This document shows, in pieces, positions 15,538-57,482 of a stretch of DNA of 64,000 bases (positions are counted from its first letter, which is position 1; each line of letters begins with the position of its first letter). Both the position numbers and the translations under genes were made by a program. The DNA is from an uncultured Rivularia sp. (GTDB lineage: Bacteria > Cyanobacteriota > Cyanobacteriia > Cyanobacteriales > Nostocaceae), in the NCBI GenBank assembly GCA_963665115.1, contig OY762007.1, forward strand, positions 6,016,001-6,080,000, read 5' to 3'. The notes beneath the pieces are model-generated. The model made no database searches. It was given only the letters and a program-made list of their open reading frames with translations, and was not told the DNA's origin.

Positions 15538-15627
15538 TAGGAGTGAGGGAGGCAGGGTATGAAAGAGTGAGGGAGGGAGAGAGGGAGAGAGCGAGGGAAA
15601 ATAATACGTAATAAAAAAAATAGTTGA

Positions 15628-15969
15628 ATGAATTGGGACAAAGAGCCAATTAAAGTAAATAAAATAATTGGAAAACAAGCGGGCTTAGGTCCAATCCCAG
15701 CTAATCAAATTTTGCCTTGGTTCGCGATTATTACAATTACCTATTTCATTTTTGATGGATTACTTAGTTGGGGAATACCCAAGGTCGCAGTTATCAGTTT
15801 TTGGTTAATTTTGAGTTGGTGGTTCGTAACGGGAAAAGACCCAGATAAATATATTAATCTTTTTCGTAAACCCAAAGGTAGCAACTGGGTTATCGGTGGT
15901 GCAATTTATATATCTCCTTTACTTTCTCGGAATATCAGAAAGCAACTAAAGAAGCATAAACGCGGATGA
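15628..15969 (+). CDS. VirB3-like membrane protein
   Basis: 113 aa with two TM segments; overlaps the start of the VirB4-like gene. Confidence 0.6.
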   Translation: MNWDKEPIKVNKIIGKQAGLGPIPANQILPWFAIITITYFIFDGLLSWGIPKVAVISFWLILSWWFVTGKDPDKYINLFRKPKGSNWVIGGAIYISPLLSRNIRKQLKKHKRG

Positions 15970-19721: not shown

Positions 19722-19789
19722 GAGGGGGAGGGAGTGAGGGAATCAATTAATTGTGATTGATAATAATCTATTTTGAGGAAGTATTCATC

Positions 19790-20971: not shown

Positions 20972-20974
20972 TAG

Positions 20975-21730: not shown

Positions 21731-21761
21731 GGGAAGAGAAAATAATACATAGTCATTTTAT

Positions 21762-23507: not shown

Positions 23508-23579
23508 TTATTTACTTCTGTAACTCCTGCTCCCCCACTCTCCCACTCTCCCCCTCCCCCACTCCTTTTTAAGACGGAT

Positions 23580-24326
23580 ATGAAAAAACCAACAATGACA
23601 GCTTTCGGAATATTTACTATACTCCTGACAACTCCGACTCCATCCTATGCCGAATCAGCGATATTAACAGTCAATGCGAACCAAGCTAGAGGTTTAGACT
23701 CAAAAGCTATTGATGTAAAAGTTTGGACTGGTCGAGCAACTGCGATTGATTTTTCAAAAGTTAACGAACGCATTACTCAAATTTTTCTAGCAGACCCGAC
23801 TCACTTTACTTATGCTACCGATACACCTTTAGATAGCGGTCAAGGCACAACTATCTTCTTACGTAAAATACAGCCTCTAAAATTTCCTAATTTGACAACA
23901 ACGAATGTTACAAATTTATTCGTTAAGACTAGAGCTAGTGACGGTAAATTTCATTTATACACTTTTAACTTACTTCATAGTAATAGCTCACCTGCTTACA
24001 GTGGCTTAAGCATATCCAATCAAACTCCAAACCCATTGAGGGGGGAGCCTACTTTACAAGTAGGTTCTTTTAGGAAAGCGACAATTAGCGATATTGAACG
24101 TGGTTTGGTTTCTGCTATTCGTAAGGGTTATACTCCACCATCTGACCCAGCTGTTACTAAAGTTAGAGAATTTATTGCATTGGCTCGAAATACCTCAGAT
24201 AAATCTTTGGTTGAAATTGCTCAAAATACAAAAGTTAGTTTACCTTTATTAGCTGAATTAGGATTATTAGGAATTGAAGATAGTTTAAAACAACCTTTAC
24301 CCAAACAACCTCAATCAAAAAATTAA
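23580..24326 (+). CDS. VirB9-like secreted T4SS protein
   Basis: Signal peptide (PSYA), beta-rich N-terminal domain, follows VirB10-like gene. Confidence 0.55.
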   Translation: MKKPTMTAFGIFTILLTTPTPSYAESAILTVNANQARGLDSKAIDVKVWTGRATAIDFSKVNERITQIFLADPTHFTYATDTPLDSGQGTTIFLRKIQPLKFPNLTTTNVTNLFVKTRASDGKFHLYTFNLLHSNSSPAYSGLSISNQTPNPLRGEPTLQVGSFRKATISDIERGLVSAIRKGYTPPSDPAVTKVREFIALARNTSDKSLVEIAQNTKVSLPLLAELGLLGIEDSLKQPLPKQPQSKN

Positions 24327-25741: not shown

Positions 25742-27325
25742 ATGAATTTAAATGATTTACCATTACTATTTGACAGTAAGCAAGGTGTTGTTGCAATAGA
25801 AAGCCCTATTACTGAAAGATTTAAAATACTAGAGTTTGTTCATGAATTAGCCCAAAAACTTTGCTTACCATTATATTTTTGGAATGAGGGCTATTCTCAG
25901 TTACAACTGTTCAATAATAATCAACAACTTATATCTACTAAACATCAATGTTTTTCGGGATTAAATTGGTTATTACAACATTCTGATATAACAGGAATAT
26001 TCCTGGTTGAAGGAGTAATTTCACCTGATACTAAAACAGGTAAATTGTCTGGGCAAACAGAGATGATGCTAAGTAATTTAGTTTATGATTTAGCTTCAAA
26101 TCCTGTGCAAAAATTTCTCGTATGTATGGAAAGTTATGTTGAACTTCCTCACTCGCTAGCACCTTTAATTCCAACATTAATTAATCCATTACCTAATCCG
26201 TCAAATATTAAAACCCTTATTCAAAACTTTTGTAGTGATAAATTTTCTACAACTAATATCAACACAAGTCAATATGAAACTTTAGTCCGTACTTGTTTGG
26301 GTTTACCGCTTGGTGAATTAGAAATGTTATTGAAACGTTTATCTAGATTTACTTATACTTTAGAAGAATTAATTGATGGAGTATTGGATTATAAGAAGAG
26401 TAAGCTAAAAGGTCAGGGTGTGGAGTTTATAAGCGAACCAGATGTACCGAATGCTGCTGGTTTAGATTTACTGTCAGAAATTTTAGAACGTGCTGCGGTA
26501 CTACTAAAACCAGAAGCACAACAACATAACCTTAGCTTTCCAAAAGGTATGATTCTTTGGGGACCACCAGGAACGGGTAAATCTTTGAGTGCTAAATTAG
26601 CAGCCAAGAAAATGGGTGTACCAATGGTTGCTGCTGACTGGGCTGGGTTAAGAGGTACTACCGCATACGAATCAAGGAAGAATTTACGAGAGTTTTTACA
26701 ATTTTGTGATGCTAATGGAGAACACGGTTTAGTTCTCTACTTTGATGACTTCGAGAAGGGATTCGCTGGTTTCGATTCTGACAATGATGGTGGTGTGTCG
26801 CGTCAATTAGCCGGGAAGTTATTGACGTGGATGCAAGAACGAACTTCTCAGGTTTTGGTTATGGCTACCGTTAACAGATTGGAGTTTTTACCTCCGGAAT
26901 TGGTACGTCGTTTTAACGAAATTATTTTCGTAGACCTACCTCATGCTGGAGCGAGGTATGAGATATTCAAATTGCACCTAGCTAAATATTTCCCAGGGCT
27001 GGATTTTTGTGAAAAAGATTGGTTACGCTTGTTAAGAGAGACGAAGCTACTTACTCCGGCTGAAATCGCGTTGATGGTTAGAAAAACGGCTGAGGAAGTA
27101 TTTTATCGAAATACTCAAAAGTTTCTTACTTCTGAACTTGCAAAACAACCTTTAGATGTCAGTGTAAGAGACTTTTTAGAAACGCGATCGCAATTTACCC
27201 CCAGCATGATTCGGGAAGAAGATAAAATTGTGGAGATTCGTAATAAAGCTGCTTACGCTCGTCCGGCTGCATCACCAGATACAAGTAGGTGGGCTAAAGA
27301 ACCGGAGGTTTTATTTGGCAGTTGA
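25742..27325 (+). CDS. AAA+ ATPase (Ycf46-like)
   Basis: PKGMILWGPPGTGKS, LYFDDFEK, LLTWMQE, ATVNRLEFLPPELVRRF. Confidence 0.85.
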   Translation: MNLNDLPLLFDSKQGVVAIESPITERFKILEFVHELAQKLCLPLYFWNEGYSQLQLFNNNQQLISTKHQCFSGLNWLLQHSDITGIFLVEGVISPDTKTGKLSGQTEMMLSNLVYDLASNPVQKFLVCMESYVELPHSLAPLIPTLINPLPNPSNIKTLIQNFCSDKFSTTNINTSQYETLVRTCLGLPLGELEMLLKRLSRFTYTLEELIDGVLDYKKSKLKGQGVEFISEPDVPNAAGLDLLSEILERAAVLLKPEAQQHNLSFPKGMILWGPPGTGKSLSAKLAAKKMGVPMVAADWAGLRGTTAYESRKNLREFLQFCDANGEHGLVLYFDDFEKGFAGFDSDNDGGVSRQLAGKLLTWMQERTSQVLVMATVNRLEFLPPELVRRFNEIIFVDLPHAGARYEIFKLHLAKYFPGLDFCEKDWLRLLRETKLLTPAEIALMVRKTAEEVFYRNTQKFLTSELAKQPLDVSVRDFLETRSQFTPSMIREEDKIVEIRNKAAYARPAASPDTSRWAKEPEVLFGS

Positions 27326-30222: not shown

Positions 30223-32046
30223 ATGAAGCAAGATTTTTTATTATCTGAAAATATCACTAATCAAACTGTCATTGAGCAAAAATCAGATGGAATAAAATCA
30301 AGTTTTGATATTAATGGACTTATTAAAACTTTCGCCAATCCCGAAGGTTTAGCAATGATAGGAATTTTAGTATTCTTATTTATATTAAGTCAATTTTCTA
30401 GTGGTAAAAAAGGTCAGATTTCTACGGGAAGAGTAGTAGGAAGAGGAGAAAAATTAGCAGCAACAAACCTTGCTTTTAAACAAATTGAAGAACGCAAGCA
30501 CAATAAGGTAACTTTTTGGTGTGGTTCGCCTCGCTATTGGTTTTCTGGTAAATTCAGAAAATTTGGTACATCACTTCAAACCTTCCTTGGAGCATCACCA
30601 ACTGTTTGGATTCCCCATGCGGAACGTTCTACTCTTGTTCTTGGCGCTCCTGGCTCTGGTAAAACTTTCGGCACGATTGACCGCATGGCAGAAAGTTGCA
30701 TGATGCAAGGTTTTCCCCTAATTGTCTACGACAAAAAAGGCGACCAAATGAAATTACTCGCACCACTCGCAGCACGCTATGGTTACGATGTGCGAATATT
30801 TGCTCCTGGTGAACCGTACAGCGAAGTAATCAACCCGCTTGATTTCATGGAGAACCAAGAAGATGCGGTGAGTGCAGGACAAATTGCTCAAGTGATAAAT
30901 GCAAATGCTGGTGGTAGCGGTAAAGGTGATGAGTTTTTCTCAAAAGCTGCTGATTTACTAGCTAAAGCATTAATCCAATTAGCCAAAGGTAGCGATTGCC
31001 CGGATTTAGCAACCGTTTACTGCATTCAATCAGTTGATGATTTTATCAACAAATTACACGCAGCAGTACAAGCAGGTACGGTTTCTCGTTGGGTTGCTGC
31101 TTCGTTTCAGCAGTACTTAAAAGCTAAAGACAGTGAGAAAACTATTGCTAGTATCGACACAACCACAGTGGGAATATTTTCCGCTTTTATCCAGAGGTCG
31201 CTTCTTTCTTCTTTTATTGGTAAAAGCACAATTTCTACCAAACTCTCAGGAAAACAAATTCTTATTTTCAAACTGGATGACCCCAGACGTGATGTGGTAG
31301 GACCATTGCTTGCAGCTGCACTTCATATGACAATTGTCAGCAATTTGTGTACCCCTCGATGCGACCCACTAGGAATATTTATCGATGAACTACCATCGCT
31401 GTATCTAAAAGCATTACCCCAATGGATTAACGAGTACAGAAGTAACGGAGCTTGTTTTGTATTAGGTGTTCAATCTTTAGAACAACTGGCTAATACATAT
31501 GGTGAAAACTTAGCAGCTGCGATAACTAGCGCTTGCAGTACAAAAGTTCTCTACAACCCAGCAAATTACTCAACTGCGGATAAGTTTTCTCAATCCTTCG
31601 GACACAAGGAATTTATTGTCAAAAATAAATCTATCAGTGATTCCAAGGAAGGACGAACGGTAACTTGGACGGATAATTTACAAACAATGCCGATTCTTAC
31701 CCCGGATGAAATTATGCGCTTCCCACAAGGAAAATGCGTGATTACCAATCCCGGTTATACATCCGGAGCAGAAGGTTCAATTCCCTATCCTTTAACTATC
31801 CCCATTCCTAAGTCAGATATACAGCGAATAAATAGAAGCGAGCAACTTTGGTCCGAGCAAGTTTATCCAAGATTACTTGTGCGCTCCCCCATTGGTGATG
31901 TTAATCAATTAGATGAAGCTATAGATATGAGGAAACAGATTGCAGAGCAACTTTTAAACGGTGGGGAACATTCGACTGCTTCTGTAAATCAATTAGAAAG
32001 CAAAGAAATAGAATTAGTTAGTCCTCATAGTAATGAGGTTTGGTAG
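30223..32046 (+). CDS. virD4: Type IV coupling protein (VirD4/TraG family)
   Basis: N-terminal TM, GAPGSGKT, YDKKG, INPLD, IFIDELPSL, RSNG..LGVQSLEQL..YG. Confidence 0.9.
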   Translation: MKQDFLLSENITNQTVIEQKSDGIKSSFDINGLIKTFANPEGLAMIGILVFLFILSQFSSGKKGQISTGRVVGRGEKLAATNLAFKQIEERKHNKVTFWCGSPRYWFSGKFRKFGTSLQTFLGASPTVWIPHAERSTLVLGAPGSGKTFGTIDRMAESCMMQGFPLIVYDKKGDQMKLLAPLAARYGYDVRIFAPGEPYSEVINPLDFMENQEDAVSAGQIAQVINANAGGSGKGDEFFSKAADLLAKALIQLAKGSDCPDLATVYCIQSVDDFINKLHAAVQAGTVSRWVAASFQQYLKAKDSEKTIASIDTTTVGIFSAFIQRSLLSSFIGKSTISTKLSGKQILIFKLDDPRRDVVGPLLAAALHMTIVSNLCTPRCDPLGIFIDELPSLYLKALPQWINEYRSNGACFVLGVQSLEQLANTYGENLAAAITSACSTKVLYNPANYSTADKFSQSFGHKEFIVKNKSISDSKEGRTVTWTDNLQTMPILTPDEIMRFPQGKCVITNPGYTSGAEGSIPYPLTIPIPKSDIQRINRSEQLWSEQVYPRLLVRSPIGDVNQLDEAIDMRKQIAEQLLNGGEHSTASVNQLESKEIELVSPHSNEVW

Positions 32047-33547: not shown

Positions 33548-34471
33548 ATGGTACTTCAAAAACAGCCAAATGCTATCTCAGATGGCATTCACAAGAGTGT
33601 GGAAACAAACGGTTTTTATCAAATACCTAATTCAATGGCTATCAAAGCTATTCGTGGGAAACTTACTGCTGCTGATTGGGCTTTATGGTCTTATTTACAA
33701 ATGATAGACCCTTTTGGAGACAAGATGATTGAATTACCAAAAATTCCAGAAATAGCTGAAGCTATAGGAATAAGCTCGCGACAAATCAAACGCTCTCTTT
33801 CGCGTTTGGAAGAATTAGAGCTTTATGTTTGGGAACCGATTTTAGTTCGCGGTCAAAATTTAGCTGGTAAAAAAGCGAAAGAACTTTGTCAACAGAAAAG
33901 AATAAATAAATCCTCTGAAAAAAATAAAATGACAGATTTGTCCGACTCTGGACAATCCTGTCCAAATGATGACAGAATTGTCCAAACCATGACAGATTTG
34001 TCAAAAAATGGACAGAATTGTCCAAATCGAGAGCCAGAACCCTTGCCTAGCAATGGTTCTAAATCCCCTCAGACTTATTCAGACTTTATACAGACTCTCT
34101 CAGAAGGCGAGAGAGAGAATTTTCTGGAATTTTCAAAAAAGAAAGCAGCTTTATTACCCAAACCTCCGCAACTACCTATCAAGTGGATTGAAGCTAACTT
34201 TGAAGATTTACATTGCCAATGGTTGGACACGAAGAAGCAAAATTGTAAATATAACTTCGAGGCTTACAGCGAATCGCAGCACCAAATGTGGTACGGACAA
34301 CTGCAAGTTGTTGTGGAAGGAGCAATCAAGCTCGGTGATGACAAGAATTTGCAGCTATTTTTCAAAGATGATTTTTACAAATGCTGGTTTAATTGGGCGA
34401 AATCAACCCGTGCAGATGTCCGCGAACTTTTAGCAAATAGTCCAATACTGCAACAGAAGAATTATGAGTGA
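33548..34471 (+). CDS. Replication initiator-like HTH protein with internal iterons
   Basis: HTH IPEIAEAIGISSRQIKRSLSRLEE; overlaps the dnaB start; central 20-bp repeats. Confidence 0.7.
   Translation: MVLQKQPNAISDGIHKSVETNGFYQIPNSMAIKAIRGKLTAADWALWSYLQMIDPFGDKMIELPKIPEIAEAIGISSRQIKRSLSRLEELELYVWEPILVRGQNLAGKKAKELCQQKRINKSSEKNKMTDLSDSGQSCPNDDRIVQTMTDLSKNGQNCPNREPEPLPSNGSKSPQTYSDFIQTLSEGERENFLEFSKKKAALLPKPPQLPIKWIEANFEDLHCQWLDTKKQNCKYNFEAYSESQHQMWYGQLQVVVEGAIKLGDDKNLQLFFKDDFYKCWFNWAKSTRADVRELLANSPILQQKNYE
33929..34027. repeat. Five palindromic iterons GACA-N4-TGTC with exact 20-bp period; putative origin
   Basis: Copies start at 33931, 33951, 33971, 33991 and 34011; an A-rich tract precedes them. 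Confidence 0.85.
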
Positions 34472-35810
34472 AAATCTAAGTTTTGTTAGTAGCGACAAAA
34501 TACCTCCTCAAAATATCGAAGCGGAGGAAGCGATTTTGGGTGGTATACTGCTTGACCCCGGAGCGATTGCTAGGGTTAAAGACATTCTTGTTGCAAAAGC
34601 TTTTTACATCAGCGCCCATCGGGATATTTATATCGCTGCCCTAGAACTTCATGGCAAAGGTAATCCCACGGATTTACTTGCAGTTATTAATTGGCTATCT
34701 GACCATAATCAACTTGCAAAAATCGGTGGTAGGAATAAATTAGCGTCCCTTGTAGACCGGACTGTATCGGCAGTTAACATCGATGCCTTAGCGCAATTGG
34801 TGATGGATAAATACTACCGAAGGCAATTGATTCATGTAAGCGGCGAAATTTTCGAGTTGGCGCACGACCAAACTCAAGAGATAGGTAAACAGTTAGAAAC
34901 AGCATTTTCAAAGGTTTTAGAGGTAAATAACAGCGCTATCGCGTCACAATCAGAGCCAACCTCATTGTCGTCTATCCTGATGAATGCTTTTGAACGAATC
35001 GAATCAAGAAATATCGGTACAAGGTCATCCGGGATAACAACTGGGTTTTGTAACCTAAATGCAATGCTAGGAGGATTAAAACCAGAAAAACTTATAACAA
35101 TCGCCGGTCGTCCGGCAATGGGCAAATCATCATTTTTAGGCAATTTAGCTTTTAACATTTCATCGCTAGAATCACTGCCAACCGTAATTTTTAGTCTTGA
35201 GATGGGTAGGGAAGAATGGGGTGATAGATTTTTATCTCAAGATGTTTCTATCGAATCGATTCATCTGCAAAATGGTTCTATTAGTAAATCTCAATGGCAT
35301 CCTTTAGCGAAATCGATTAGTAAGTTAAGCGAACTGCCTATTTACATTGACGATTCGCCTGTATTAACAGTTAATTTGATTCGTTCCAAAGTTAAACAAC
35401 TTATTGCTAAATACAGTCGCATTGGTATGGTTGGAATTGACTATTTGCAATTAATGGAAGGAACGGATGGTGATAATTATAATTTAGCTTTTCAAATAGG
35501 AAAAATTACCCGAGGGTTAAAACAATTAGCACGCGAATGTAACACTACTGTTGTCATATTGTCACAGTTAAATCGTGGTGTAGAAAGTCGAAATATCAAA
35601 CGTCCTGTGATGTCAGACTTAAGAGAATCTGGGCGAATTGAAGAAGATTCGGATTTAGTTTTACTCCTTTACCGTGATGAATATTACCACCCCGATACGG
35701 TTGATAGAGGTATTGCAGAAATAATTGTTGCTAAAAATAGAGGCGGACCAACAGGAACTATAAAACTGCTATTTGACGCACAATTTACTTGTTTTAAAAA
35801 TTTGGCTTGA
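34464..35810 (+). CDS. dnaB: Replicative DNA helicase (element-encoded)
   Basis: PPQNIEAEEAILG, AGRPAMGKS, FSLEM, IDYLQL, LSQLNR, SDLRESGRIEEDSD, AKNRGGPTG. Confidence 0.95.
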   Translation: MSENLSFVSSDKIPPQNIEAEEAILGGILLDPGAIARVKDILVAKAFYISAHRDIYIAALELHGKGNPTDLLAVINWLSDHNQLAKIGGRNKLASLVDRTVSAVNIDALAQLVMDKYYRRQLIHVSGEIFELAHDQTQEIGKQLETAFSKVLEVNNSAIASQSEPTSLSSILMNAFERIESRNIGTRSSGITTGFCNLNAMLGGLKPEKLITIAGRPAMGKSSFLGNLAFNISSLESLPTVIFSLEMGREEWGDRFLSQDVSIESIHLQNGSISKSQWHPLAKSISKLSELPIYIDDSPVLTVNLIRSKVKQLIAKYSRIGMVGIDYLQLMEGTDGDNYNLAFQIGKITRGLKQLARECNTTVVILSQLNRGVESRNIKRPVMSDLRESGRIEEDSDLVLLLYRDEYYHPDTVDRGIAEIIVAKNRGGPTGTIKLLFDAQFTCFKNLA

Positions 35811-36120: not shown

Positions 36121-36857
36121 TCAAACCTATGCTCAAGGAAGCTTTAGCAGAATTTGATGCGCCAACAGGAAAGGTAAATGCCAACTTAATCGGTTACGAG
36201 TGTTTTCCTGAAGGTGGTGGAATTTATGCCATGTATTGCAAAAATACGGGTGAAGCAATAAGACGCAAAGTCATCGGTTTGGTGATGTTGGGATATCGAA
36301 ATGCCTCTGCAATCATATCTCGGCGCGGTATTTTGAATCGGGGTAAAACTGCTACATTGGGTATGGCTAAGATGGTAGAAAAAGTTATTGAAGGTACATC
36401 AGGGTTAGAAGCACAAGAATTGATTGAAGCGATTGTAGCTGCTGGTGATGAACCGAAGCCACAACATTTTTACCATCTATATAGTTCTAGTAATCTTCGA
36501 GATACTCAAATTGAAAAGATTATATCTGTTGTAAATTCTTCTAGAGCAGAATATGCGATTGCGCTTGTGAATTGGTTAAAAGAGGTACTGCCGAATAACA
36601 ATGAATTGGATGAATTAATTATCTGTGGTGGTACGGCTGATTATTTGCGAGAAGAGTTAGACGCAGTTTTTCCAACAATACCTATAGTTTGGCATGGAAA
36701 TGTGAACATTCCGCAAACACTTAACGAACAATGGTTGGGGAATCGTTTAGCTGATGTATGGGCGCTTTCGGTTTACCACGGTATTAAAGTTAGAGCAGTT
36801 ATGAGAGAGGTGATGAGTGGGAAAGGAGGAGAAAGCAAAGGGTTAAAAGATGGTTAG
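36121..36857 (+). pseudogene. N-terminally truncated ParM/StbA actin-like ATPase
   Basis: Contains FPEGGG, VMLGYRNAS and IICGGTA but lacks the N-terminal D-x-G phosphate-1 loop. Confidence 0.7.
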
Positions 36858-37318
36858 AAAAAAGGACTTCACATGGCGGTATCAGCCACCTCTGGATTCA
36901 GATAGAGCGACAATGCTTAGCTATATTCAAAATGAAGGGCCTACATCCATTTCAAAATAAAACCGTAATGATAATGACTGCTCTAAATGCATATTACATG
37001 GCTTTAGCACTGTACAGCGAAGGTAGTTATTCTCGCGAAACTTTGGAATTGATATTTCTGGATTCGGTAAAGGCGATCGCAAATCATCTTCAGTACGTCA
37101 GCATTGCGATAAAAGTAGACGAACACGCAGTTACAGATGTTTTATGCACTGTATTTGGAGGATTAGAGACAAGAAAAACTCAAAAAGATACGCCATTACA
37201 ATATAGTACACAATTACCACCATCAGACCAAAATGAAGAATCATCTGATTTAAATTTACAAGCATGGAATTTAGCAGGAATGACAACAGATAGCGAAACC
37301 TTTAACCCCGGAAATTGA
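36850..37318 (+). CDS. Hypothetical, possibly ParR-like partner; frameshift at ~36938
   Basis: ATG at 36850 (MVRKKDFTWRYQP..) joins ORF 36932..37318 if one G is removed; directly follows ParM. Confidence 0.55.
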
Positions 37319-37320
37319 TT

Positions 37321-38040
37321 ATGGCAAGAATACATTTAGTTGATGGTGAAAAGGGAGGAGTCGGGAAGTCGCTGTTTACCCGCGTTATGGTGCAGTATGC
37401 AATTGACCATAAATTGGAACATACTTTGGTGGATGCAGATATAACGAATCAAGATGTGAAACGCTTCTATGATTATGCTGTTGATGCTGAATTTAGTGAA
37501 GCTGTAAACAAAGGGGATAAAGCCGACATAATTTTTGAATTAGCTAGGAAAAAACCCGTTATAGTTAATCTTCCCGCGAATGTATTTCCAAAAGTTAATA
37601 ATTGGATAAAAAACGGACGTTTATTGGAAGTTGCAGATAAATACGGTGTAGATATTTGTAAGTGGTTTGTCTGTGATGGTGGTTTTGAATCTATAGATTT
37701 ATTCAAACAATCCATAAAATTGTACAAAGATAAAATGCTTCATGTGTTTGTCAAGAATTTAGGTAAAACAGATGATTGGAGTTTTTTAAAGGATAACCCG
37801 TCCTTTAAAGAGTTGTGTAAAAAGCATGAAAAGACTTTAAAAATAATTGAATTTCCGCTTCTGTATCCGGGAGATAGATATTTTATCGACTCTAATAAGT
37901 TTCGGTTTGATGCAAAAGAAATTGAAGAAATAATGCCTATAATGTCACAGCAAAGATTATTTACTTTTTTAAGCGAATCAAATCAAGCTATTGAAAGTAC
38001 TCAAAGGTGGAAAAAAAGGCAGATGGCAGAAGGTAAATAA
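37321..38040 (+). CDS. MobD-like / ParA-type P-loop protein
   Basis: MARIHLVDGEKGGVGKS, VDAD..N.DV, VIVNLPA. Confidence 0.7.
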   Translation: MARIHLVDGEKGGVGKSLFTRVMVQYAIDHKLEHTLVDADITNQDVKRFYDYAVDAEFSEAVNKGDKADIIFELARKKPVIVNLPANVFPKVNNWIKNGRLLEVADKYGVDICKWFVCDGGFESIDLFKQSIKLYKDKMLHVFVKNLGKTDDWSFLKDNPSFKELCKKHEKTLKIIEFPLLYPGDRYFIDSNKFRFDAKEIEEIMPIMSQQRLFTFLSESNQAIESTQRWKKRQMAEGK

Positions 38041-38154
38041 AGAGTGAGGGAGTGAGAGAGTGAGGGAGTGAGGGAGAGGTAATTGAATGGAGTTTTAATG
38101 GAGTTTTAGACCCTCCTGTCTCAATAAAAATTACTCATACATGAGGTAAGTAAT

Positions 38155-39153
38155 ATGAATTACGACCTTCAAATTTTATACGAAACCAATCAAGCTTTTA
38201 ACTGCGATGTAGTCACTGCTGATGAAGAGAAATATATGGGAAGACTATATATTCTTACTACAGACGATACTACCTTGAAAAATTTAGGAATTAAAGAAGA
38301 ATGGTACCTTGCTCACGAAGAAGCTGATGTATTAGTTAGCGGACATATTAATAGTGATGGTAAGTGGAGTTTATCAACCTGGAGAAATTTAGAACCAAGT
38401 TTTGAATATACAACTCGTAACAAAATATTTGACCAAGTGTTTAGTCCTGAATATGTTTGGAAACTAATGCATTTTCGTGAAGAAAATATCATAAGCATAT
38501 CTCAAAAAACAAGTATTCCTGACAGCTTTAATGATAGTGATGATAATAATTCAAATGGAATGAATAGAAAATATTTAGGTATTATGCCAGGACAACTAAA
38601 CATTACTACAGAGAATTTGAATATATTACAGGGTTTAATTATGCATTCATATGATTCTTCATCAGTTAATTTAGAGCAAGATTTAGAAACCGAGATTATT
38701 TCTGTATATAACGAGCAAGAATCAGCAATAAAAAGCACAAACATAAATGAAATTATGAACCACTTTCAACGAGAATATGCTCCTTTATTAGATGAAAAGG
38801 AATTATTTCATGCTCAGATAGATTTAACCGAAAGAATCATGGATGAATATGAGAAACGCCAAAAAGACGAGTTTGTCTTTACACCTTTAGGAATTGTCAC
38901 AATAAATGCCGAAGAAAGTTGTTGCAGTTTAAAAGATTCAGAAGATGGTCATACTATATTTACTGCGACTTTTGATGCTGATATTATTCACGGATTAAAT
39001 GATACTGATGCTCTTAAGATTGAAATGATTTTACATCAGTTTGATAGAGAAGATTTTCGACGAGCGAGAAGTATGCTTCAAGAAGAAAAGTTAATTCATC
39101 AAGAAAACGGTTCCCAACTCAACCGAAATGCAGGAATAGATTATGATTTATAG
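38155..39153 (+). CDS. Hypothetical acidic protein
   Basis: 332-aa ORF with GAGG RBS. Confidence 0.7.
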   Translation: MNYDLQILYETNQAFNCDVVTADEEKYMGRLYILTTDDTTLKNLGIKEEWYLAHEEADVLVSGHINSDGKWSLSTWRNLEPSFEYTTRNKIFDQVFSPEYVWKLMHFREENIISISQKTSIPDSFNDSDDNNSNGMNRKYLGIMPGQLNITTENLNILQGLIMHSYDSSSVNLEQDLETEIISVYNEQESAIKSTNINEIMNHFQREYAPLLDEKELFHAQIDLTERIMDEYEKRQKDEFVFTPLGIVTINAEESCCSLKDSEDGHTIFTATFDADIIHGLNDTDALKIEMILHQFDREDFRRARSMLQEEKLIHQENGSQLNRNAGIDYDL

Positions 39154-39808
39154 TTTACGAAAAGCGAAAAATGAAAGTTATCTGAATAAGTTACTTGAAG
39201 GAAAAGATGCGGACTTTCAAAGAAGAGTTTTAGCTGTAGCTGTTGAACATGGGTTATCTACAAGTGACCCTTTATTTCTAATAATGATTTCCACTGGTCA
39301 ACTTCAAGTTTTGTTGGAAGATAAACCGAGTGAATTAGACCAATTATTTAAACGTTGGTCGGAAGCAATTTACGAACATTTGGAGAAAGCAAAGCGTACT
39401 GCTGTAAGTGGTCAGGAAGTGGAAATCCGTTCGATGGTAAACCGGCTTATTAAGCATTGTGAGTCGAAAGAGAGAAGCCGTTTAGTAGTAATGTTACCAG
39501 CGATAGGGCTAATAATAGCAGCAATTGGGTTTGGTGTTTTGACTGGGTTATCTGTTCCGGTATGGCTGGCTGGTGGTTATGCGTCTGGAAAGCCGAAGTT
39601 ATTAACAGTTGAACAAGTTGAAAGTTTACGGTGGTTAAAAAGTTCTCAAGGTCGCTTAGCAAGGAATATTGTTACTTGGAATTCTGAAAGTTTGAGCAAT
39701 TTAAATTGCACTAATAATCCGGAGCAAAGGGCTGTAGTTAATAATGCTAAAGGCAAACATATTACTCGTAAAAGTGATTATTGTTTATTGCGGGTTAAAT
39801 CACCTTAA
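39143..39808 (+). CDS. DUF6753-like membrane protein
   Basis: GL..SDPLFL.M..TGQLQVLLE..P, one TM helix, and LRWLKSSQGRLA. Confidence 0.6.
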   Translation: MIYSLRKAKNESYLNKLLEGKDADFQRRVLAVAVEHGLSTSDPLFLIMISTGQLQVLLEDKPSELDQLFKRWSEAIYEHLEKAKRTAVSGQEVEIRSMVNRLIKHCESKERSRLVVMLPAIGLIIAAIGFGVLTGLSVPVWLAGGYASGKPKLLTVEQVESLRWLKSSQGRLARNIVTWNSESLSNLNCTNNPEQRAVVNNAKGKHITRKSDYCLLRVKSP

Positions 39809-41639: not shown

Positions 41640-44600
41640 TTACCCTTGCTGTAAACCTTTCTGCTCTTGGAAAGCACCATGCTCAAAACTTTTCTTCTCA
41701 TCCTCTGTAAAATTGCATACTAAAACTGGTTTTCCTCTTTGTGCCTTGTATAAAGTCCCGCGATGATTTTCCTTCTCATCAACAATCCGCAGCATTTCTG
41801 AAGGTATATGGTGAATAACTCGATATTTACCATCCCCAAAAGTTGCTGTTTGTATTTCCTCATCAGCATTCGCGGGATTTTCTTTTAAACTCGCAAGAGC
41901 CTGTTTTAACATCTGCTTTTCCCATTCTTCGCGTTTTACTGATACGGAAGTTTCTGGAAGAGGTAAAGGAGATAAATTTGAATTATTTTCTTTGGAGGCT
42001 GCTATGTGTGTATTATTCTCAACAGAATTTGTTTCATGAATCGCTTTAACTTCAACTTGTTGAGTTTTTGACTCCTTTATTTGATTTTTATTGCCGATTT
42101 CATTAATCAACTCTCGTAATTCATTCAACTCAATTGCGATAAATTTAGTTCTTTGTCCATTTTGTAACTGGTCGTATTCTAGAGGGAAATTTAATGTATC
42201 TTTGATTCTAGCTGCTGTTTTCTGTTCTGAAACCTTTGTAGGAACAGTAACACAAAAATAAAGTTCTTCAATATTGTCCTTGTTAGCGATACCAATCAAG
42301 CTTTCAACACCAAATTTTTTATCAATCTCCTCAGATAGTTTCTGAAAAACTTCTGGTTCTATATTTTTTTCTTTCAAAAAAGATTCAAAATATTCATTTT
42401 TTATAGGTAATACACCTAAAGATGCTTCCGAGTCATGCAATAAACCTTTGTTCTCTTTCTCGTGATAAATTTCATTGAGAATTTGTTTTAATTCATCTAA
42501 TAAACTTTTTTTATTGTCTGTAACTAGAGGTTCTTCTTTTATCCAAGTTTGAGGATATTGGATTGTTTGGGGGTCAACTTTTATATGAGCAATAGTAGCA
42601 GGTGATGATTCAAGCTTTCCTTCAAACTTAAATCCTTCGATTTGAATACCTCTTGAATTCAATTTTTCACTTAATACTTTGAATGATTCTTTATCAATTA
42701 CTCCCAAAGGTTTATCATCAACTAAAGCAATGGGTTTAACGGAAGAACCAACATTAGAAAGTTTAATTTTTACTATGCCTTGCTCTCCATTCCATTCTCT
42801 TGAAACTGCATCATATTTTTTCAACTGTCCCACTTTCAATTGATTACCTTTGGTACTTGTGATAACAACCGATGCGCTTGGTGGAGAAGTGATTTCTGCA
42901 CTAAAAGAAGTACCGATAGGTAACTGTGCTGATTCGCTACGAAATACCCCCAATTTTTTATCTTCAGCTACTAACCAACGTTTATTTTGTGTTGGATTAG
43001 CAGGGGTCGGGTGCTTGTTCGATAGTACATTCAACTTTTTCACCTACCCATTTACGTCCCAAATGTTCGTTACAGGGTTTATGGGTTCCCACAACTGCGA
43101 ATTCAGTAAATTGCAGTTTTTCTAATCTTCCAATTATTTCTTCTCCAAATACAGCGAATGCAGCTGATGTTTTGTTAAATCCATATTTTGCATCATCTTT
43201 GCTCGTTGTTGAAATCTGCCACATTGCAGCTGCAACTGCTTCTTTTTCTGAGTCAGGAATAGTTTCACGAGTTGTAGTTGCGAATTCTTTTACTTGTTTG
43301 AAAGCTGCTCTAACTTGACTTGATGTCAATCCAGGTTCAATTTTTTTGGTTAAATTTTTGAATTCGGTGAATGGTTTAATACGACCTTGAAATTGCTCTA
43401 AAGAAGTTTCTGAAATATAACCTAAGTGTTTGCGCTGTTGCTGACCGTTGGTTTTTACCTTCGGTTTTCCGCGTTCGTCGAGTACAGGTGCTATAGCTAT
43501 CCATTTGTTATCGACTTTATTGAAGTGATTTTTATTTTCTATTAATGAAATATTAAGTTTTCGATTCTCAAAGATATTTGGATGTTTTTTCTGAGATAAA
43601 CCAACAATTTCTATTTGAAGACCTTTAGGATTAATTGCAACAATTTTTAAACCTGGTGCTTGTTTAACTTCTTTACTAATTTGAATTGCACGACGAATCA
43701 ATGAATCGTATATTTTCTTTATATTAACTGCTTTTTGTTTCTGTGCGGGTGTAAATTCAACTCCATTAAAAAAGTTTTGAAACTGTTGGGTTGAACGCGG
43801 TACAATTGCGCTTTGTGCGAATGCTTCATTGGTTATACTCGCCATTTTATCGATAGCGGAGTGACCTTTGACATTCATTGTCTTTTTAGTATAAATTTCA
43901 TTATTATTTCTATCTTCAACCCACGGAGCAATATCAAAGCTTTTGATAATGTTATTACAGGCATTTACTATTTTTGGGTCGGAGCGATTAGCACTTTTAC
44001 CTCTATCAACTTCGATTTGTAGCTGTCCTCCTAAAGTTCCTACAACATCGTGATAAAATTTACCAATTTTTTCTAAAATATGTTCAATTTTTGATTCGGG
44101 GATTCGAGGTAGACTTTTATTGTGTTGTGGTAGTTTATTTATTTCAGTTTTATTTTGAGCTTCTGGTTGACACAACTGTGCTAATTCAACTATTTGCGTT
44201 CGGAGATTTTCTGGATATTGAATTGGGTGAGTGTGATGGTTTTCGGCTTTTAAAATTTCTACTGCTGCACAAGAAATATCTTTAATGAATTTCTGGGCTT
44301 CTTTCGGTGGAATTGAGATACATTCATTTTCAAGAGCAATTCCTTTCATGCATAAATTAGCAACTATGCCAATTTTATTCTCCATCGCATCTAACGCTAT
44401 TTGCTCAAAAGAACCCTTATATGCTTTTTTCTCTGGCTTAACTATTTCGGAATAACGGTTTTCTTTTAGTTGCTTCTGTTTAATTTCTGCTGTCGTGTGA
44501 GGGAAGTCAGATGATAAGGCGATCGCCATTCTATCTCCGTCACAATCGGATAGCGAATGCTTTAATCCTTGGGGTGACATTTTTATCGTGCCAATATCGT

Positions 44601-46086
44601 GCGGTTCGTTTGGTAAATGACGATTGATATAAACGTCCACCGTGTTGGAATTAGCAGTGGGACCGCGATAAACGGTTAAGGAAGCACCATCTGGGAATTT
44701 AGGGTAACAAACTTCATTTTTCTCTAAATCATGACAAGTTTGCGCCATTGCTGAATCAAATTTGATAAATCTTCCTGTAGCGCAATCCATATACTGTTGT
44801 TTCAAGTGTTCTTGAAGTTTATCTATGATTTTGGGATGCTCCAATAATTGACAATGTTCTTTCAAATCTGCTTTGAGAATGCGATATATCAAGTTTTGCT
44901 CGCAATCATTTGACAAAAACATATCATCAATTAGATTTTCAATATCTCCTAAATCAAAGCTTTCAAAATCAATCAAATCTTCAGATTCTGTCTGAGCTTG
45001 TATTTGATGTTTACATTTAGCATCTATTGAATCGATATAGTCTTGAGCGATTTTTCTGGGGTCATTAGCCATATCTTTGAGTTCTTCCAAACGTCTTTGC
45101 AATCGTGGAAGAACATCACCTTCTACTCCTCTAGGAAAAGAATTCCAAAATTGAGCGCCCGTGGAAGTGATACCGTGATATGCATTGGTCTTGTTTCCAA
45201 TTCCCATCTTCATTAGGTATTCCCCAGGTTTTAGAGGAGTGGGGGAGGGGGTGATGGGGGGAGTGGGGGAATGGGAGAGTGAGGGAGTGAGGGAAGTGGG
45301 AGTGAGGGATTGGTCTACAACAATATTCGTTCTTTCTGTACCTGCTGTATACTCTCGTTCATTCCCTCTCTCTCTCCCTCCCTCCCTCTCTCGCTCTTTC
45401 CCCCTCTCTCCCGCTCTCCCACTCCCCCACTCCTCTTTCTGTACTCGTCCTTTGAGTTGTTCGCTCGAAATTACCAAATCATATCCATTCCCTACCTGAC
45501 TTAAATCCCGTGGCGCAAATGTACCTTTTCCCAATTGCCAAGTTTTATTAATGTCATTATTTTGGTTAAGCCCAGCACGTCTTTCTTTGATACCAAACCG
45601 AGTTTGAAATGGTGTTTCTGGCTCATTACCTAAAGACTTATGTAATACAGCATCTATTTTCCCATCACCATCACCAACTAACTTAATTGCTTCAGAATTT
45701 GGCATCACCCCACCATTCTCACCAGTGTCAGCATCCACAACTAAAACTCGTAAATTTTCTCGTTCAGAAAAACTTTGACAGGGTGTAAACATATTGGAAC
45801 CATATGCAGCACCGAAGTGGGGTTCGTCAAAAATCTTTTCTCGCAATTCCTCATCCATAAAGTAGAAGCGATTATCGGCTGCAAATTGCAGTGTTAATCC
45901 TTCTGTTGTAAATTGTTTGAGGTCTTCTTCTGTTGATAATCCCTGATATACTATTCCCAACTTGAAAGTAGAACTTTGAGCAAAGTATTCTGCCAAGCAG
46001 TGTTCAATTGTTTCTGTAATTGGTTCTCCGTCCGCGATAATTGGTTTACCCGTTTTTGTGCAGAAGTGGGAGAGGGTAATTGCCAT
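41640..46086 (-). CDS. Single-subunit two-barrel RNA polymerase (cellular RdRP/YonO-like), ~1481 aa; frameshift at ~43004
   Basis: Motifs in RdRP order: GDGDGKI, PFQTRFG, LGKGTF, VYRGP, SDCDGDR (44533-44547), IGIVAN, QIEVDRGKS. ORFs 42997..46086 and 41640..43043 join as APDPANPT. Confidence 0.8.
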
Positions 46087-46149
46087 AACCTTCTATGCCT
46101 CAATTCATCAAGTTACCTTCAAATCTAGTTTTTACGGATTGATGCATAG

Positions 46150-46189
46150 TAGTTCTTTAGTGAAGAATATTTCTATCACTAAAGTAGTA
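46150..46189. promoter_or_regulatory. Operator-like pair (TAGTTCTTTAGTGAAG / TATCACTAAAGTAGTA) upstream of the RNAP gene
   Basis: Similar to the 13652 palindrome and has the same 24-bp spacing. Confidence 0.45.
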
Positions 46190-46263
46190 TTTTTGTTCTT
46201 AAAGCCTTAGTTTTTGTTTACTATGGGGATTAAGTAACAAACATTCTTTGAGGATATTGAGTT

Positions 46264-46518
46264 ATGGATAGTGCGAAAAAAGTAGTATTACAACCGAATG
46301 TTTGGGATACAGATAATTTGGGAGATTTAGTTGCCGAAGGGGTTTTGGGCAGTGATGATTTGTCTTTACACGGTGTTGTTCAAGCGCAGAATGAAGAATA
46401 CGAGCGTAAGGAGCGAGAATGGCAAGAAGAAAATGAAAAATATTTAAACTCTATTGATTGGGAAAGTAAAGCAGTTAAGTATGAACCAACAAAGGAAGAA
46501 GAGGAGGAAGTTTTTTAA
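46264..46518 (+). CDS. Small acidic hypothetical protein
   Basis: 84 aa, GAGGA RBS, divergent from the RNAP gene. Confidence 0.65.
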   Translation: MDSAKKVVLQPNVWDTDNLGDLVAEGVLGSDDLSLHGVVQAQNEEYERKEREWQEENEKYLNSIDWESKAVKYEPTKEEEEEVF

Positions 46519-46683: not shown

Positions 46684-46947
46684 CTACTGCACGGTGATTG
46701 CACGTACCAAAATACTCATTACCTCTCCTGGATTAGAAGTTGGTAACAACGGAGTCCAATCCCGTACATTTGCATAGCCAAGTTGATGTAAAACCTGAAT
46801 TGTCGCTATTACTGCTTTACGGGAGCCAGTTAGTATATGCTTGATTCTTTCTGGTTCCGGAGGTTGAGATATTATAGGCTGAGGACTCACAATAGCTTTT
46901 TGTTGATTTCTCGCATCACTCAGAAAATTTCGATACTCTGATTTCAT
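46684..46947 (-). CDS. Small hypothetical protein
   Basis: 87 aa, IKHILTGS..LHQLGYA..DW.P pattern seen in cyanobacterial small proteins. Confidence 0.7.
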   Translation of the reverse strand: MKSEYRNFLSDARNQQKAIVSPQPIISQPPEPERIKHILTGSRKAVIATIQVLHQLGYANVRDWTPLLPTSNPGEVMSILVRAITVQ

Positions 46948-46983
46948 TATTTATTCACCGCTATTACGATTTCATTTTTGACT

Positions 46984-46995
46984 CCCCGTGAGGGG
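46984..46995. promoter_or_regulatory. Mini-hairpin CCCC-GTGA-GGGG (putative template-strand promoter)
   Basis: 37 bp upstream of the start at 46947; same architecture as 48620 and 49347. Confidence 0.6.
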
Positions 46996-47100
46996 TTTTA
47001 CTAGCTGCAAGTATTCAGTTTCGAGGCAATTATTTGTCCTGAAATAAAGTCGAAACGAACCGTCCCCGTATTGCTTTAATCCTTGTTCACAGAAATGAAT

Positions 47101-47241
47101 TTATTGTCTTTGAAGCCATTGAATAATGCTTTCGTAATTATCAGTTAAGAAAAGTGCAGGAAAATAAATTCGTCCGGTTTTAACTCCAGTTTTTGGGTGA
47201 GTAAATATTTGAAATTGCGGCTCGCTTAAAACTTCAGCCAT
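47101..47241 (-). CDS. Small hypothetical protein (probable start MAEVLSEP; possibly truncated)
   Basis: QFQIFTHPKTGVKTGRIYFPALFL. Confidence 0.5.
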   Translation of the reverse strand: MAEVLSEPQFQIFTHPKTGVKTGRIYFPALFLTDNYESIIQWLQRQ

Positions 47242-47329
47242 TACTATTACTTTGTGAAAATACTTTGAATAATTTTGAAAGCTTGTGATAGATAAATTGA
47301 AGTACCTTGACACAAGATTTCCTAAAAGA

Positions 47330-48082
47330 TTAATTAGATAGTGACTCGGAATATTTCACGAAATTCGAGATTTTCCAGTTCAAACCATGCACTTTATCAG
47401 CAATATTTGGCTTAGAAGAATTGCCATCACATAGCATACAAAATTCACATTTTATAATGTCATTTTCAGTGTGACGACAAAGGATTTCGTTATCACTTAA
47501 AGGTGCATCGGGAGCCATAATCCTAAAAGTTCTCCAGCCTTTACTTTGAGCAATACGAGCTTCCGATTCGCTTTGTACTGAAGCCATCAAATATGTTTGC
47601 CAGCGTTTGTCGCAGTCATTGCGAAACCATTGATGTGTGTAGCCAGTATATCCAACAGATGCAGAAATAATCGGTTCCCAGACATCGAATGGTACTGCTG
47701 TAGGGTCGCCATATGAACCAATTCTGATAGGATAACGATAATACTTTAAAAGTTCTATTTCATTTTTGCTGAGTTTTGAGTAAGTACCTGCTACATATTT
47801 TCGGTACATATTATTTATTGGAGCGAGATTGACATAGCAGCTTCCTGTTTTGCTCAATTTTAAACTACAAGAGCCACAAATACCTCGATCCAAACCTTGC
47901 TTTGCAGCAAAAGTGGGAACGAATTCTTGTTGTAAAACCCAGCTTTGAATCATCCTTCCGGTTTTGCGATTTGAACTAGGAGAAACAAAGCCTGTCAAAA
48001 TCAGAACTATAGGAGAACCGTCAATTAAAGATGCCCCTTCCCAAACTATATAACTATTTTTCAACATATTAATAGCGGACAA
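47330..48082 (-). CDS. Cys-rich phage-type protein, possible Fe-S / radical-SAM-like
   Basis: NRKTG, ICGSC..SCYV, IRIGSYGDP, GYTHQW, MASV, and C-terminal C..CxxCxxC. Confidence 0.6.
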   Translation of the reverse strand: MSAINMLKNSYIVWEGASLIDGSPIVLILTGFVSPSSNRKTGRMIQSWVLQQEFVPTFAAKQGLDRGICGSCSLKLSKTGSCYVNLAPINNMYRKYVAGTYSKLSKNEIELLKYYRYPIRIGSYGDPTAVPFDVWEPIISASVGYTGYTHQWFRNDCDKRWQTYLMASVQSESEARIAQSKGWRTFRIMAPDAPLSDNEILCRHTENDIIKCEFCMLCDGNSSKPNIADKVHGLNWKISNFVKYSESLSN

Positions 48083-48150
48083 ATATTTTGATTTTTCTGA
48101 AGCGAAAAGTATTTGAAATGATGATGTATGTGAAATAATCTACGACACCA

Positions 48151-48182
48151 AAAAGGGGAATAAAATCAACTTTATTCCCCTT
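48151..48182 (-). terminator. Intrinsic terminator
   Basis: On the minus strand AGGGGAATAAA-loop-TTTATTCCCCT followed by a T-tract, after the stop at 48207. Confidence 0.75.
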
Positions 48183-48206
48183 GAATTCTGGTTTATAATT
48201 TCAGTA

Positions 48207-48584
48207 TTAATTCTCGGCTTTCATTTGAGGATTAACACTTGCATTTACCCTCTGGGCATATTCCCTCCTGCGCTGCCAAGATAATTCGTTTAGTACTACT
48301 AAATCTTCCTTAGTTTTACCAAATTTACGATTAGCGAATTCAAGCAGTTGTTCAAGGGAATAGCGCTTTTCTTCTACTTTTCCAAAATCAGTTGCGAAGC
48401 GCTCTTTAAATACATCCCAATTAAAGTTTTGAAAACTGTTTTTAGCAAGAAGTCCGCATAAAGACCGTATGGAATAGTAGACTTTAGAGTAAAGTCTTTC
48501 TGAGTAATCGCTAACTGAATACTCGCCTAAAACGGAATCATCGATTGCTTGAAAGTTTGGTGCAGAGGATTTACGTGTAGCCAT
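48207..48584 (-). CDS. Hypothetical protein
   Basis: 125 aa, AGGAG RBS. Confidence 0.75.
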   Translation of the reverse strand: MATRKSSAPNFQAIDDSVLGEYSVSDYSERLYSKVYYSIRSLCGLLAKNSFQNFNWDVFKERFATDFGKVEEKRYSLEQLLEFANRKFGKTKEDLVVLNELSWQRRREYAQRVNASVNPQMKAEN

Positions 48585-48619
48585 AAGACAGATATCTCCT
48601 AAATTTTCATTGCTCTATT

Positions 48620-48631
48620 GGGCGTAAGCCC
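48620..48631. promoter_or_regulatory. Mini-hairpin GGGC-GTAA-GCCC (putative template-strand promoter)
   Basis: 36 bp upstream of the start at 48584. Confidence 0.6.
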
Positions 48632-48671
48632 TCTTTCTATTGGATTATTTCAGTACGTTAAGTTTCGGTAA

Positions 48672-48917
48672 TCAGCACCAAGATGAATCGTGATAATCTG
48701 CCATTAAATCCTTGATTTCACAGTTGTGCTGATAATCAATTTCTAACTGTTGAAAGTCTGTATCTAATGCTAGATTTTTCAATTCTTGTATCATTTCTTT
48801 AACATGATTTTCATCACTGATACCTGAGTAGTAAACTTTGATAAATTTGTCAGCTTTAGTCATGAATTGTTCTAGATTTGTGACGAAACCCTGTTCTGTT
48901 TCAATTGCTTGAATCAT
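48672..48917 (-). CDS. Hypothetical protein
   Basis: 81 aa, AGGAG RBS. Confidence 0.65.
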   Translation of the reverse strand: MIQAIETEQGFVTNLEQFMTKADKFIKVYYSGISDENHVKEMIQELKNLALDTDFQQLEIDYQHNCEIKDLMADYHDSSWC

Positions 48918-48947
48918 GATTTTCTCCTATAAACTATTTGAAGCGAT

Positions 48948-49310
48948 TTAGTATTCGTTTGGAAGCATGAGGACTTTTTCAACCAGATAGAGCTTGATAT
49001 GATTCAATGGAAAATCTGTATATTCAATTTCTTGCCGTAATACTTCTTGATTCGTATCCCATTCGCATATCAAAATTCCGGAATTATCTTGAACTTGTAA
49101 ATGCCAAATTTGAAATTCTCGGAGTTTTGGATTCGATAGGAATTGTTTCGTTTGATGTGAAGCGATTGCATCTAATAACCAATAGCAGTTAGCTTCTTGC
49201 GCTAGGTATTGGATTCCTTCAGTGTATTTTAAGCCGAGCCAGTGTTTGTAGAGAGTGACTGAACCATAAAATTGTTTTAGCTCGATGGTTATTTCTTGTG
49301 AAGTTTTCAT
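48948..49310 (-). CDS. DUF6876-like protein
   Basis: YTEGIQYLA..CYWLLDAIAS..FQIW..Q.I.YTDFP..LMLPNEY. Confidence 0.75.
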   Translation of the reverse strand: MKTSQEITIELKQFYGSVTLYKHWLGLKYTEGIQYLAQEANCYWLLDAIASHQTKQFLSNPKLREFQIWHLQVQDNSGILICEWDTNQEVLRQEIEYTDFPLNHIKLYLVEKVLMLPNEY

Positions 49311-49346
49311 TTTTTCAAAATCATTTTACGAACTTCACAACTTCAT

Positions 49347-49358
49347 CGGCGTGAGCCG
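49347..49358. promoter_or_regulatory. Mini-hairpin CGGC-GTGA-GCCG (putative template-strand promoter)
   Basis: 37 bp upstream of the start at 49310. Confidence 0.6.
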
Positions 49359-55015: not shown

Positions 55016-55037
55016 GAGTTTAATGTAGAGGCAGGCT

Positions 55038-57460: not shown

Positions 57461-57482
57461 GGAAATGTCTCCTAATTCAGAA

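Follow-up and report, generated by a model that had tools for sequence, protein, structure and literature searches.

A predicted single-chain two-barrel polymerase of cyanobacterial conjugative elements and its acidic partner gene

The window analysed here (64,000 nucleotides of contig OY762007.1, from an uncultured Rivularia sp.) carries a gene for a predicted single-chain two-barrel polymerase of the QDE-1/YonO type. The gene is a real and probably intact member of its predicted family, which appears to be the one already in print as 'YonO-like family IV'. New here are a small acidic partner gene, head to head with the polymerase gene, and a quantified tie to conjugation, which the family is supported as tracking across cyanobacterial genomes and plasmids. 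As for its role, the best reading, which we hold tentatively, is a co-transferred priming polymerase that would depend on a single-stranded template.

Reading frame and predicted polymerase core

As assembled, the locus is spanned by two minus-strand open reading frames, 42997-46086 (1029 aa) and 41640-43043. Full-length homologues (1452-1478 aa) cover both, with the frame change at 43000-43016 in all five tested; once one base is removed, the gene occupies 41640-46086 on the minus strand and has 1481 codons plus a stop. A preliminary description of this DNA had proposed just such a protein of about 1481 aa, repaired near 43004, and the extra base can now be placed at 43003: it is kept in run X1 and omitted in runs X2, X3 and X22. 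Three runs of the same organism contain the stretch. The X2 contig across 39500-45310 shows zero substitutions relative to the window and just two gaps: one falls on 43003, the other on 40347, an extra base that splits a response regulator. X1 has both bases. X2 and X3 also omit 17898 and 36937, and X1 carries two further insertions absent from the window. Because these single-base differences come without substitutions, we take them as read errors, and the polymerase gene is therefore probably whole and intact in this organism; a genuine difference between samples at 43003 is still conceivable. The RNA run X22 contains a relative about 91% identical, in the form of contigs, which by themselves are no sign of transcription.

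That this copy is instead a pseudogene, with a real frameshift inside a decaying element, seems very improbable. Retention of the base in X1 would fit, as would the failure to find a relaxase or integrase in the element and the presence in all runs of a break in VirB4 and a shortened ParM gene. Against this, X2 and X3 lack base 43003, without any substitution across the long pieces that are listed, and also lack the extra bases at 40347, 17898 and 36937, which is the pattern of single-base error. Differences between the window polymerase and a relative number 182, 120 and 423 at codon positions 1, 2 and 3 (994 codons), as under purifying selection.

The features of the gene and its predicted core are:

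43003, without strand: extra base that splits the polymerase gene in the assembly
43645..46086, minus strand: polymerase core, residues 1-814, predicted two-barrel fold (from profile, AlphaFold model, Foldseek and motifs)
45655-45675, minus strand: GDGDGKI, located, like the motifs below, in the translation
45592-45612, minus strand: PFQTRFG
45523-45534, minus strand: LGKG
44659-44673, minus strand: VYRGP
44533-44547, minus strand: DCDGD
44356-44373, minus strand: IGIVAN
43993-44010, minus strand: VDRGKS

All the motifs named in the preliminary description were thus found where it had located them and in the order it gave. The first barrel region holds D139, R163 and K187, and the second holds R474, P476 and D514-C-D516-G-D518; a low-complexity insert occupies residues 218-280. 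Of 89 homologues, 82 have DxDGD; the seven exceptions are incomplete proteins that align over 11-44% of the query. In the alignment of relatives, D139, R163, K187 and R474 occur in 34 of 35 rows, and P476, D514, D516 and D518 in all 35. The residues described as common to all two-barrel polymerases are, in QDE-1 numbering, D709, R738, K743, R962, P964, D1007, D1009 and D1011 (alignment in PMC2919709). All eight are matched in the family when mapped by motif to that published alignment, and they suggest that the enzyme is catalytically active.

The AlphaFold model of residues 1-814 has a pLDDT of 82.2 and a pTM of 0.79, with pLDDT 92-98 around residues 501-530, which include DxDGD (514-518); together with the fold match described next, this would place DxDGD where the two barrels meet. 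In the Foldseek comparison suggested earlier, QDE-1 (2j7n, TM 0.46) and maize RDR2 (7w82) ranked first, both at E 7.4e-10, followed by the phage enzymes P74 gp62 (1e-8), gp64 (4e-7) and phi14:2 (2e-4). TM-scores are modest, 0.46 at most. Cellular RNA polymerase subunits give local matches only, at about 1e-2 and far below QDE-1, and isolated DPBB domains also match weakly. Several QDE-1 entries in the PDB are titled as complexes with DNA templates.

Profile comparison points the same way. When five YonO-like phage proteins are combined into a profile, it matches the family with probability 92.3 (E 5.6e-7); the match spans 171 columns, in the region of R-P and DxDGD, and scores 58.7 against 17.3 for the reversed control and 11.5-21.9 for 20 shuffles; YonO alone against the family profile is not significant (probability 1.0). 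Sequence searches of the PDB with the window polymerase gave nothing significant (Pol IV subunit 1 at E 1.5), and a Pfam search gave no match, PF05183 (RdRP) included. Pfam RdRP matches do occur in three of the 35 aligned relative cores (best 2.5e-6); one relative scored 22.1, against a gathering cut-off of 23.8, and PF05183 is found on 16% of one Atlas cluster. Fold match, phage profile match and conserved residues agree, and support the earlier reading of the protein as a QDE-1/YonO-type two-barrel polymerase.

The likeness has limits on both sides. To QDE-1 and RDR2, the best fold matches, identity is 11-12% and TM 0.37-0.46, and the window polymerase differs in being borne by a bacterial mobile element and in having extra beta repeats and a C-terminal domain. 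With YonO of SPbeta, P23-45 gp64, P74-26 gp62 and phi14:2 gp66 it shares a single chain and the same motif order, and it matches the fold of the solved phage enzymes; it exceeds YonO (839 aa) in length by about 640 residues, however, and those are phage transcription enzymes, whereas the present family stands in a conjugative context.

Family IV was described by Ruprich-Robert and Thuriaux in 2010 with an example from Cyanothece ATCC 51142 (PMC2919709). Both motif blocks printed there resemble, by eye, our alignment rows around GD-G, Q-R, KGT, R-P--N and D-DGD; the rows compared (P0075-P0085) match the window polymerase at E<1e-110, and membership of the window polymerase in that family appears likely on this basis. 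Passages of PMC2919709 that treat the family place it in 'main genomes', call the role of the cyanobacterial enzymes an enigma and make no mention of conjugation, an export tail or a partner. A section of PMC3417536 (Aravind 2012) places such enzymes in selfish elements, with RNase H in cyanobacterial versions, and proposes a primase role; the cyanobacterial group is also mentioned in part of PMC7824862. The remark in the preliminary description that similar proteins had been noted computationally is borne out by PMC2919709 and PMC3417536.

Conjugation genes across the family and in this element

The polymerase family comprises 586 clusters at 50% identity (E <=0.001). It is found on 96 of 72,556 plasmids, which MOB-suite classes as conjugative (43), mobilizable (16) or non-mobilizable (37), and the 60 that are listed of these 96 are all cyanobacterial. 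At least 47 of these 60 are also among the 60 listed of the 127 plasmids with VirB4. In contrast to the phage RNA polymerases, there is no match among 50,697 phage records, and a pattern search of IMG/VR, a weak one, gave no confirmed family member.

Among 301 cyanobacterial genomes, scored with at most two or three candidates each, 39 have a polymerase match and 38 a cyanobacterial VirB4; 26 have both, 13 the polymerase only and 12 VirB4 only, a co-occurrence that is overstated because kin are not independent. Where the polymerase match is strong (E<1e-50), VirB4 is present in 26 of 28 genomes, and 11 of the 13 polymerase-only genomes have weak matches, several of them to a shorter subfamily. 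The taxonomic family of the window's organism (36 genomes) divides into 18 with both, two with the polymerase only, five with VirB4 only and 11 with neither.

This genome itself holds four copies of the polymerase, the other three 33-42% identical to that in the window; of these, the one at 1.73 Mb is truncated to 860 aa. All four adjoin genes for VirB4, coupling protein, AAA, ParM, ParA-like and DUF6753 proteins. A fifth transfer cluster (7.64-7.65 Mb) has no polymerase; with that cluster and 12 of the 38 VirB4 genomes lacking a match, the polymerase is dispensable for the transfer system.

Accessory domains occur in 11 of the 49 long relatives: SLOG (5), DUF4326 (3), NADAR (2), RNase H-like (2), helicase (1) and Prim-Pol (1, in relative P0132). 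Part of the link to transfer may already have been published: Iyer and Aravind (2012) reportedly covers the cyanobacterial proteins, their accessory domains and their place in mobile elements. Our literature search, with that paper and Iyer 2003 outside its scope, found no functional study of the family and no link to conjugation.

The SLOG, NADAR and DUF4326 fusions suggest an alternative, in which the enzyme would be an RNA-dependent RNA polymerase, or would make a signalling or defence RNA within the element's conflict arsenal. The nearest folds are indeed RNAi RdRPs, and RNA amplification is left open in the discussion of these enzymes in PMC2919709. We give this alternative little credence: the six annotated plasmid loci show no conserved nuclease, Argonaute or array, save a type III CRISPR locus in one (L004), and the genes that recur beside the polymerase serve transfer and partition.

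Around the polymerase in the window lie the following features:

14881..24326, plus strand: cyanobacterial mating-pair cluster (from annotation and comparison with sister elements)
15966-18841, plus strand: VirB4, in pieces, within the mating-pair cluster
21762-23507, plus strand: VirB10/TrbI-like protein, within the mating-pair cluster
25742..27325, plus strand: AAA ATPase, shared by all four of the genome's elements that carry the polymerase (annotation)
30223..32046, plus strand: type IV coupling protein, TrwB/TraG-D (annotation)
33548..35810, plus strand: HTH protein and DnaB helicase (annotation)
36129..39808, plus strand: ParM-like (5' part missing), ParA-like and DUF6753 proteins (annotation)
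46684..49310, minus strand: small-gene cassette with DUF6876 at its end, which shares 77-88% identity with its other copies in the genome

Further genes of the mating-pair cluster presumably encode VirB6, VirB8 and VirB9, names that we assign from position. VirB4, the coupling protein and core transfer genes are of MPF_C type: VirB4, the VirB10-like protein and the coupling protein match counterparts on plasmids of Nostoc PCC 7120. As set out in the relevant part of PMC4027160, MPF_C is defined by eight profiles near VirB4, with no polymerase among them; this 2014 survey found no experimental study of cyanobacterial conjugation. Two further loci, the 5.92 Mb element and plasmid locus L003, likewise have the DUF6876 cassette next to their polymerase.

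The present element differs from MPF_C systems in that searches for a relaxase (four queries) and an integrase (three queries) found neither in it; a MobV relaxase is present in all three sister elements. No tRNA was found at the putative element ends. VirB4 is broken near 17270, where no indel is listed in any of the three runs, nor does any run show an indel at the ParM-like gene that lacks its 5' part. Thus, the link to conjugative elements made in the preliminary description stands across genomes and plasmids and only in part for the surrounding element, which has a broken VirB4 and no detected relaxase or integrase. The element looks immobile, and this copy is probably no longer transferable; its polymerase could act only through the machinery of a sister element, or would be a recent relic.

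In each of the other three copies, the polymerase directly follows the ParM, ParA-like and DUF6753 trio. We therefore also considered a vegetative role, in which the enzyme would stay in the donor, without export, and would prime or support replication there, be it of the plasmid or of the excised circle. The DnaB and HTH proteins of this element and the Prim-Pol fusion in a relative would suit such a role. We regard it as improbable in view of the co-occurrence with VirB4 and of a bias in the C-terminal tail, described next.

C-terminal half, tail and acidic partner

The remaining features of the polymerase gene and its upstream side are:

42500..43645, minus strand: three homologous beta-rich repeats of about 90 aa each, with a helical bundle after the first (from profile comparison and the model of relative L010)
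41640..41933, minus strand: C-terminal domain of about 85 aa and a 12-residue tail ending KGLQQG, seen in family members only
46087..46263, without strand: shared intergenic region with an imperfect palindrome (hairpin z about -4.5 to -5)
46264..46518, plus strand: small acidic partner gene encoding 84 aa (net charge -14, motif like EELLSEGxxxxDDL), head to head with the polymerase

The repeats are mutually homologous with probabilities of 93-99, in iterated alignments that may share rows, and in relative L010 they are well predicted (pLDDT 88.5). They have no match in Pfam or the PDB and no usable one in the Atlas. An assignment to HIRAN (PF08797-type, single-strand-binding) was rejected, as the scores of 8.4-12.9 lie within the shuffle range for a narrow template of 14 sequences.

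Acidic or arginine-type tails can serve as type IV export signals. The domain of about 85 aa is absent from other element proteins, and so only the last residues could be a common signal. Among 87 long polymerase representatives (members >=1100 aa among 141 new ids, some of them perhaps cut by contig ends), 12 end in ER and 30 in R, compared with 14 and 300 of 3848 genome ORFs. In this genome, ER ends four of 123 element ORFs, two of which are polymerases, and 12 of 5542 ORFs outside the elements. Relaxase C-terminal ends include RGIEQ, QELEL and HEMEP; an acidic tail is present on several relaxases and absent from one (L003). From this compositional bias we regard the polymerase tail as a candidate export signal.

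Of the 40 polymerase ORFs whose surroundings were inspected, 23 face a related small gene head to head; the remaining 17 loci have no ORF there or an unrelated one. Eleven partners are short with an EELLSEGxxxxDDL-like motif, 11 have an NPDG-type motif, and one (L015) carries both, which links the two kinds. The partners are net acidic in 22 of the 23 cases, and the gap to the polymerase is <=64 bases in 16. The clade of the window's partner joins the others through the aligned motif only (15-30% identity).

Two candidate nucleic-acid signals were tried and rejected. The intergenic hairpin, as a conserved single-strand promoter, is strong here (z -5.1), but in six relatives it is absent or has z of -0.4 to -1.8. 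The purine-rich 8-nt repeats, as signals of the polymerase, number 511 genome-wide and 0-1 per sister element.

Proposed role

Conjugation delivers a single strand. In the reading that we tentatively favour, the polymerase would be exported through the type IV system with the transferred strand, as its tail suggests, and in the recipient would lay RNA on the incoming single strand, which would prime second-strand synthesis. Use of a single-stranded template is suggested by the likeness to QDE-1 and by the needs of conjugation. In the donor, the acidic partner would act as a template-mimic inhibitor or as a chaperone that quiets the polymerase. A priming role fits best because the tie to VirB4, the relaxase-like tail and the RNase H and helicase fusions all suit an incoming single strand; the rank of QDE-1 and RDR2 above the phage enzymes in the predicted fold comparison may also be counted in its favour.

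Primases sent with conjugative plasmids are an established feature, and TraC of RP4 and SogL of R64 do the job proposed here: they pass into the recipient and prime the incoming strand there (in the account given in part of PMC5512222). They are, however, Toprim enzymes of unrelated fold, and transfer and priming are shown for them and proposed for the window polymerase.

Several points count against a priming role. The polymerase in the window ends in KGLQQG rather than ER, and the L003 relaxase lacks the acidic tail. The repeats have no match to the single-strand-binding HIRAN profile. About 800 residues with a large helical region would seem to exceed what a primase needs, and with a Prim-Pol fused to the relative P0132, a second primase might seem superfluous. 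The transfer system also does without the polymerase in some genomes, and 13 of the 39 genomes with a polymerase match lack VirB4. By analogy, YonO and the P23-45 RNA polymerases, which are gene transcriptases, would also speak against it.

The main and close rival, which we think possible if somewhat doubtful, builds on that analogy: a YonO-like DNA-dependent transcriptase for the genes of the element. Its targets would be the transfer operon, while still in the donor, or genes for early establishment once the DNA has entered the recipient, and the acidic partner would be a specificity factor or an inhibitor. YonO is a processive DNA-dependent RNA polymerase for late phage genes, as stated in part of PMC5467207, and the P23-45 enzymes use their own promoter motifs, according to a section of 10.1101/2022.12.01.518664. 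Both the fold matches to phage single-chain enzymes (E 1e-8 to 2e-4) and the profile match to YonO-like phage proteins would be expected of such an enzyme, and in three loci the small-gene cassette adjoins the polymerase. QDE-1 and RDR2 nevertheless outscore the phage enzymes, the 8-nt repeats seen before element genes occur genome-wide and are scarce in sister elements, and the tail bias, like the fusions to RNase H and helicase, suits transfer better. One transferred enzyme could also both prime and transcribe.

The fullest version of the proposal, rather unlikely as a whole, is that these elements inject a QDE-1-like two-barrel polymerase together with their DNA to prime or transcribe the single strand, and that a dedicated head-to-head acidic inhibitor silences it in the donor. 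If true, a two-barrel enzyme would here serve as a transferred primase; it would also be a bacterial equivalent of the enzyme from which RNA-silencing polymerases descend, and half of a new polymerase-inhibitor pair. Because the predicted fold is closer to eukaryotic RNAi polymerases than to the solved phage enzymes, its activity would bear on the origin of RNA silencing, and a single-chain polymerase with a natural inhibitor could serve as a tool. With the tie to the transfer system, the candidate export tail and the partner, the role of the polymerase and cyanobacterial conjugation itself become testable in Nostoc PCC 7120, which has family members on plasmid alpha (WP_010999746.1, with partner WP_010999747.1) and plasmid beta (WP_010993977.1).

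Transfer clusters and relatives of the polymerase

The same contig (G000:C1) contains four further transfer clusters, at 1.72-1.76, 4.23-4.27, 5.88-5.92 and 7.64-7.65 Mb, and a polymerase is found together with the relaxase MobV in three of them. An unnamed protein that ends in LER is encoded directly before the AAA ATPase at two places on this contig (G000:C1, 5904441-5905823 and 4248903-4249853) and at L003 (3091-4560), a locus carrying a polymerase relative; this protein is a candidate for a further export substrate.

In one relative of the polymerase, P0132, Prim-Pol and PriCT-2 domains are fused ahead of the two-barrel core. Two other loci carry members of a shorter subfamily (~790-900 aa):

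L005, 7858-10224: short-subfamily polymerase, 1.7 kb behind a long member
L038, 865-3471: short-subfamily polymerase

One member of this subfamily gives a direct Pfam RdRP match, and weak matches of the same shorter kind are present in genomes without VirB4.

Cassette and repeats within the element

Features of the element in the window

13298-13564: small gene, left end
15531-45442: purine-rich 8-nt tandem repeats, GGGAGTGA-like, 11 sites
27258-27900: 300-nt repeat in two copies that are 86% alike to each other; the stretch overlaps the AAA ATPase gene at its end
46684-49404: five or six small genes forming a cassette, DUF6876 among them
50923-52503, minus strand: 526-aa protein, right end

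The DUF6876 cassette, beside the polymerase gene, has 77-88% identity to copies at three further genomic sites, whereas the polymerases are only 33-42% alike; the cassette seems to be independently mobile. The 8-nt repeats are placed between element genes and also within the polymerase gene, where an inverted pair (45233-45436) gives rise to a disordered insert in the protein. Their sites number 511 across the genome, versus 0-1 in each sister element.

Element ends and flanking regions

The left-end gene product is presumably excisionase-like. Its homologue at 5.884 Mb adjoins a weak integrase match, unlike the window gene, near which no integrase match was found. At the right end, the 526-aa protein had no match in a Pfam search; its gene is adjoined by an inverted 7-nt repeat pair (50718-50886) that has five other sites in the genome.

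Two regions flank the element:

1-12527: genes for STAND ATPases and for large proteins with calcium-binding repeats, some of them broken into two frames
52871-64000: peptide synthetase cluster, read from translations

The latter includes a penicillin amidase, along with genes that we take to encode a thioesterase, an MbtH-like protein, a transporter, an aminotransferase and the end of a synthetase.
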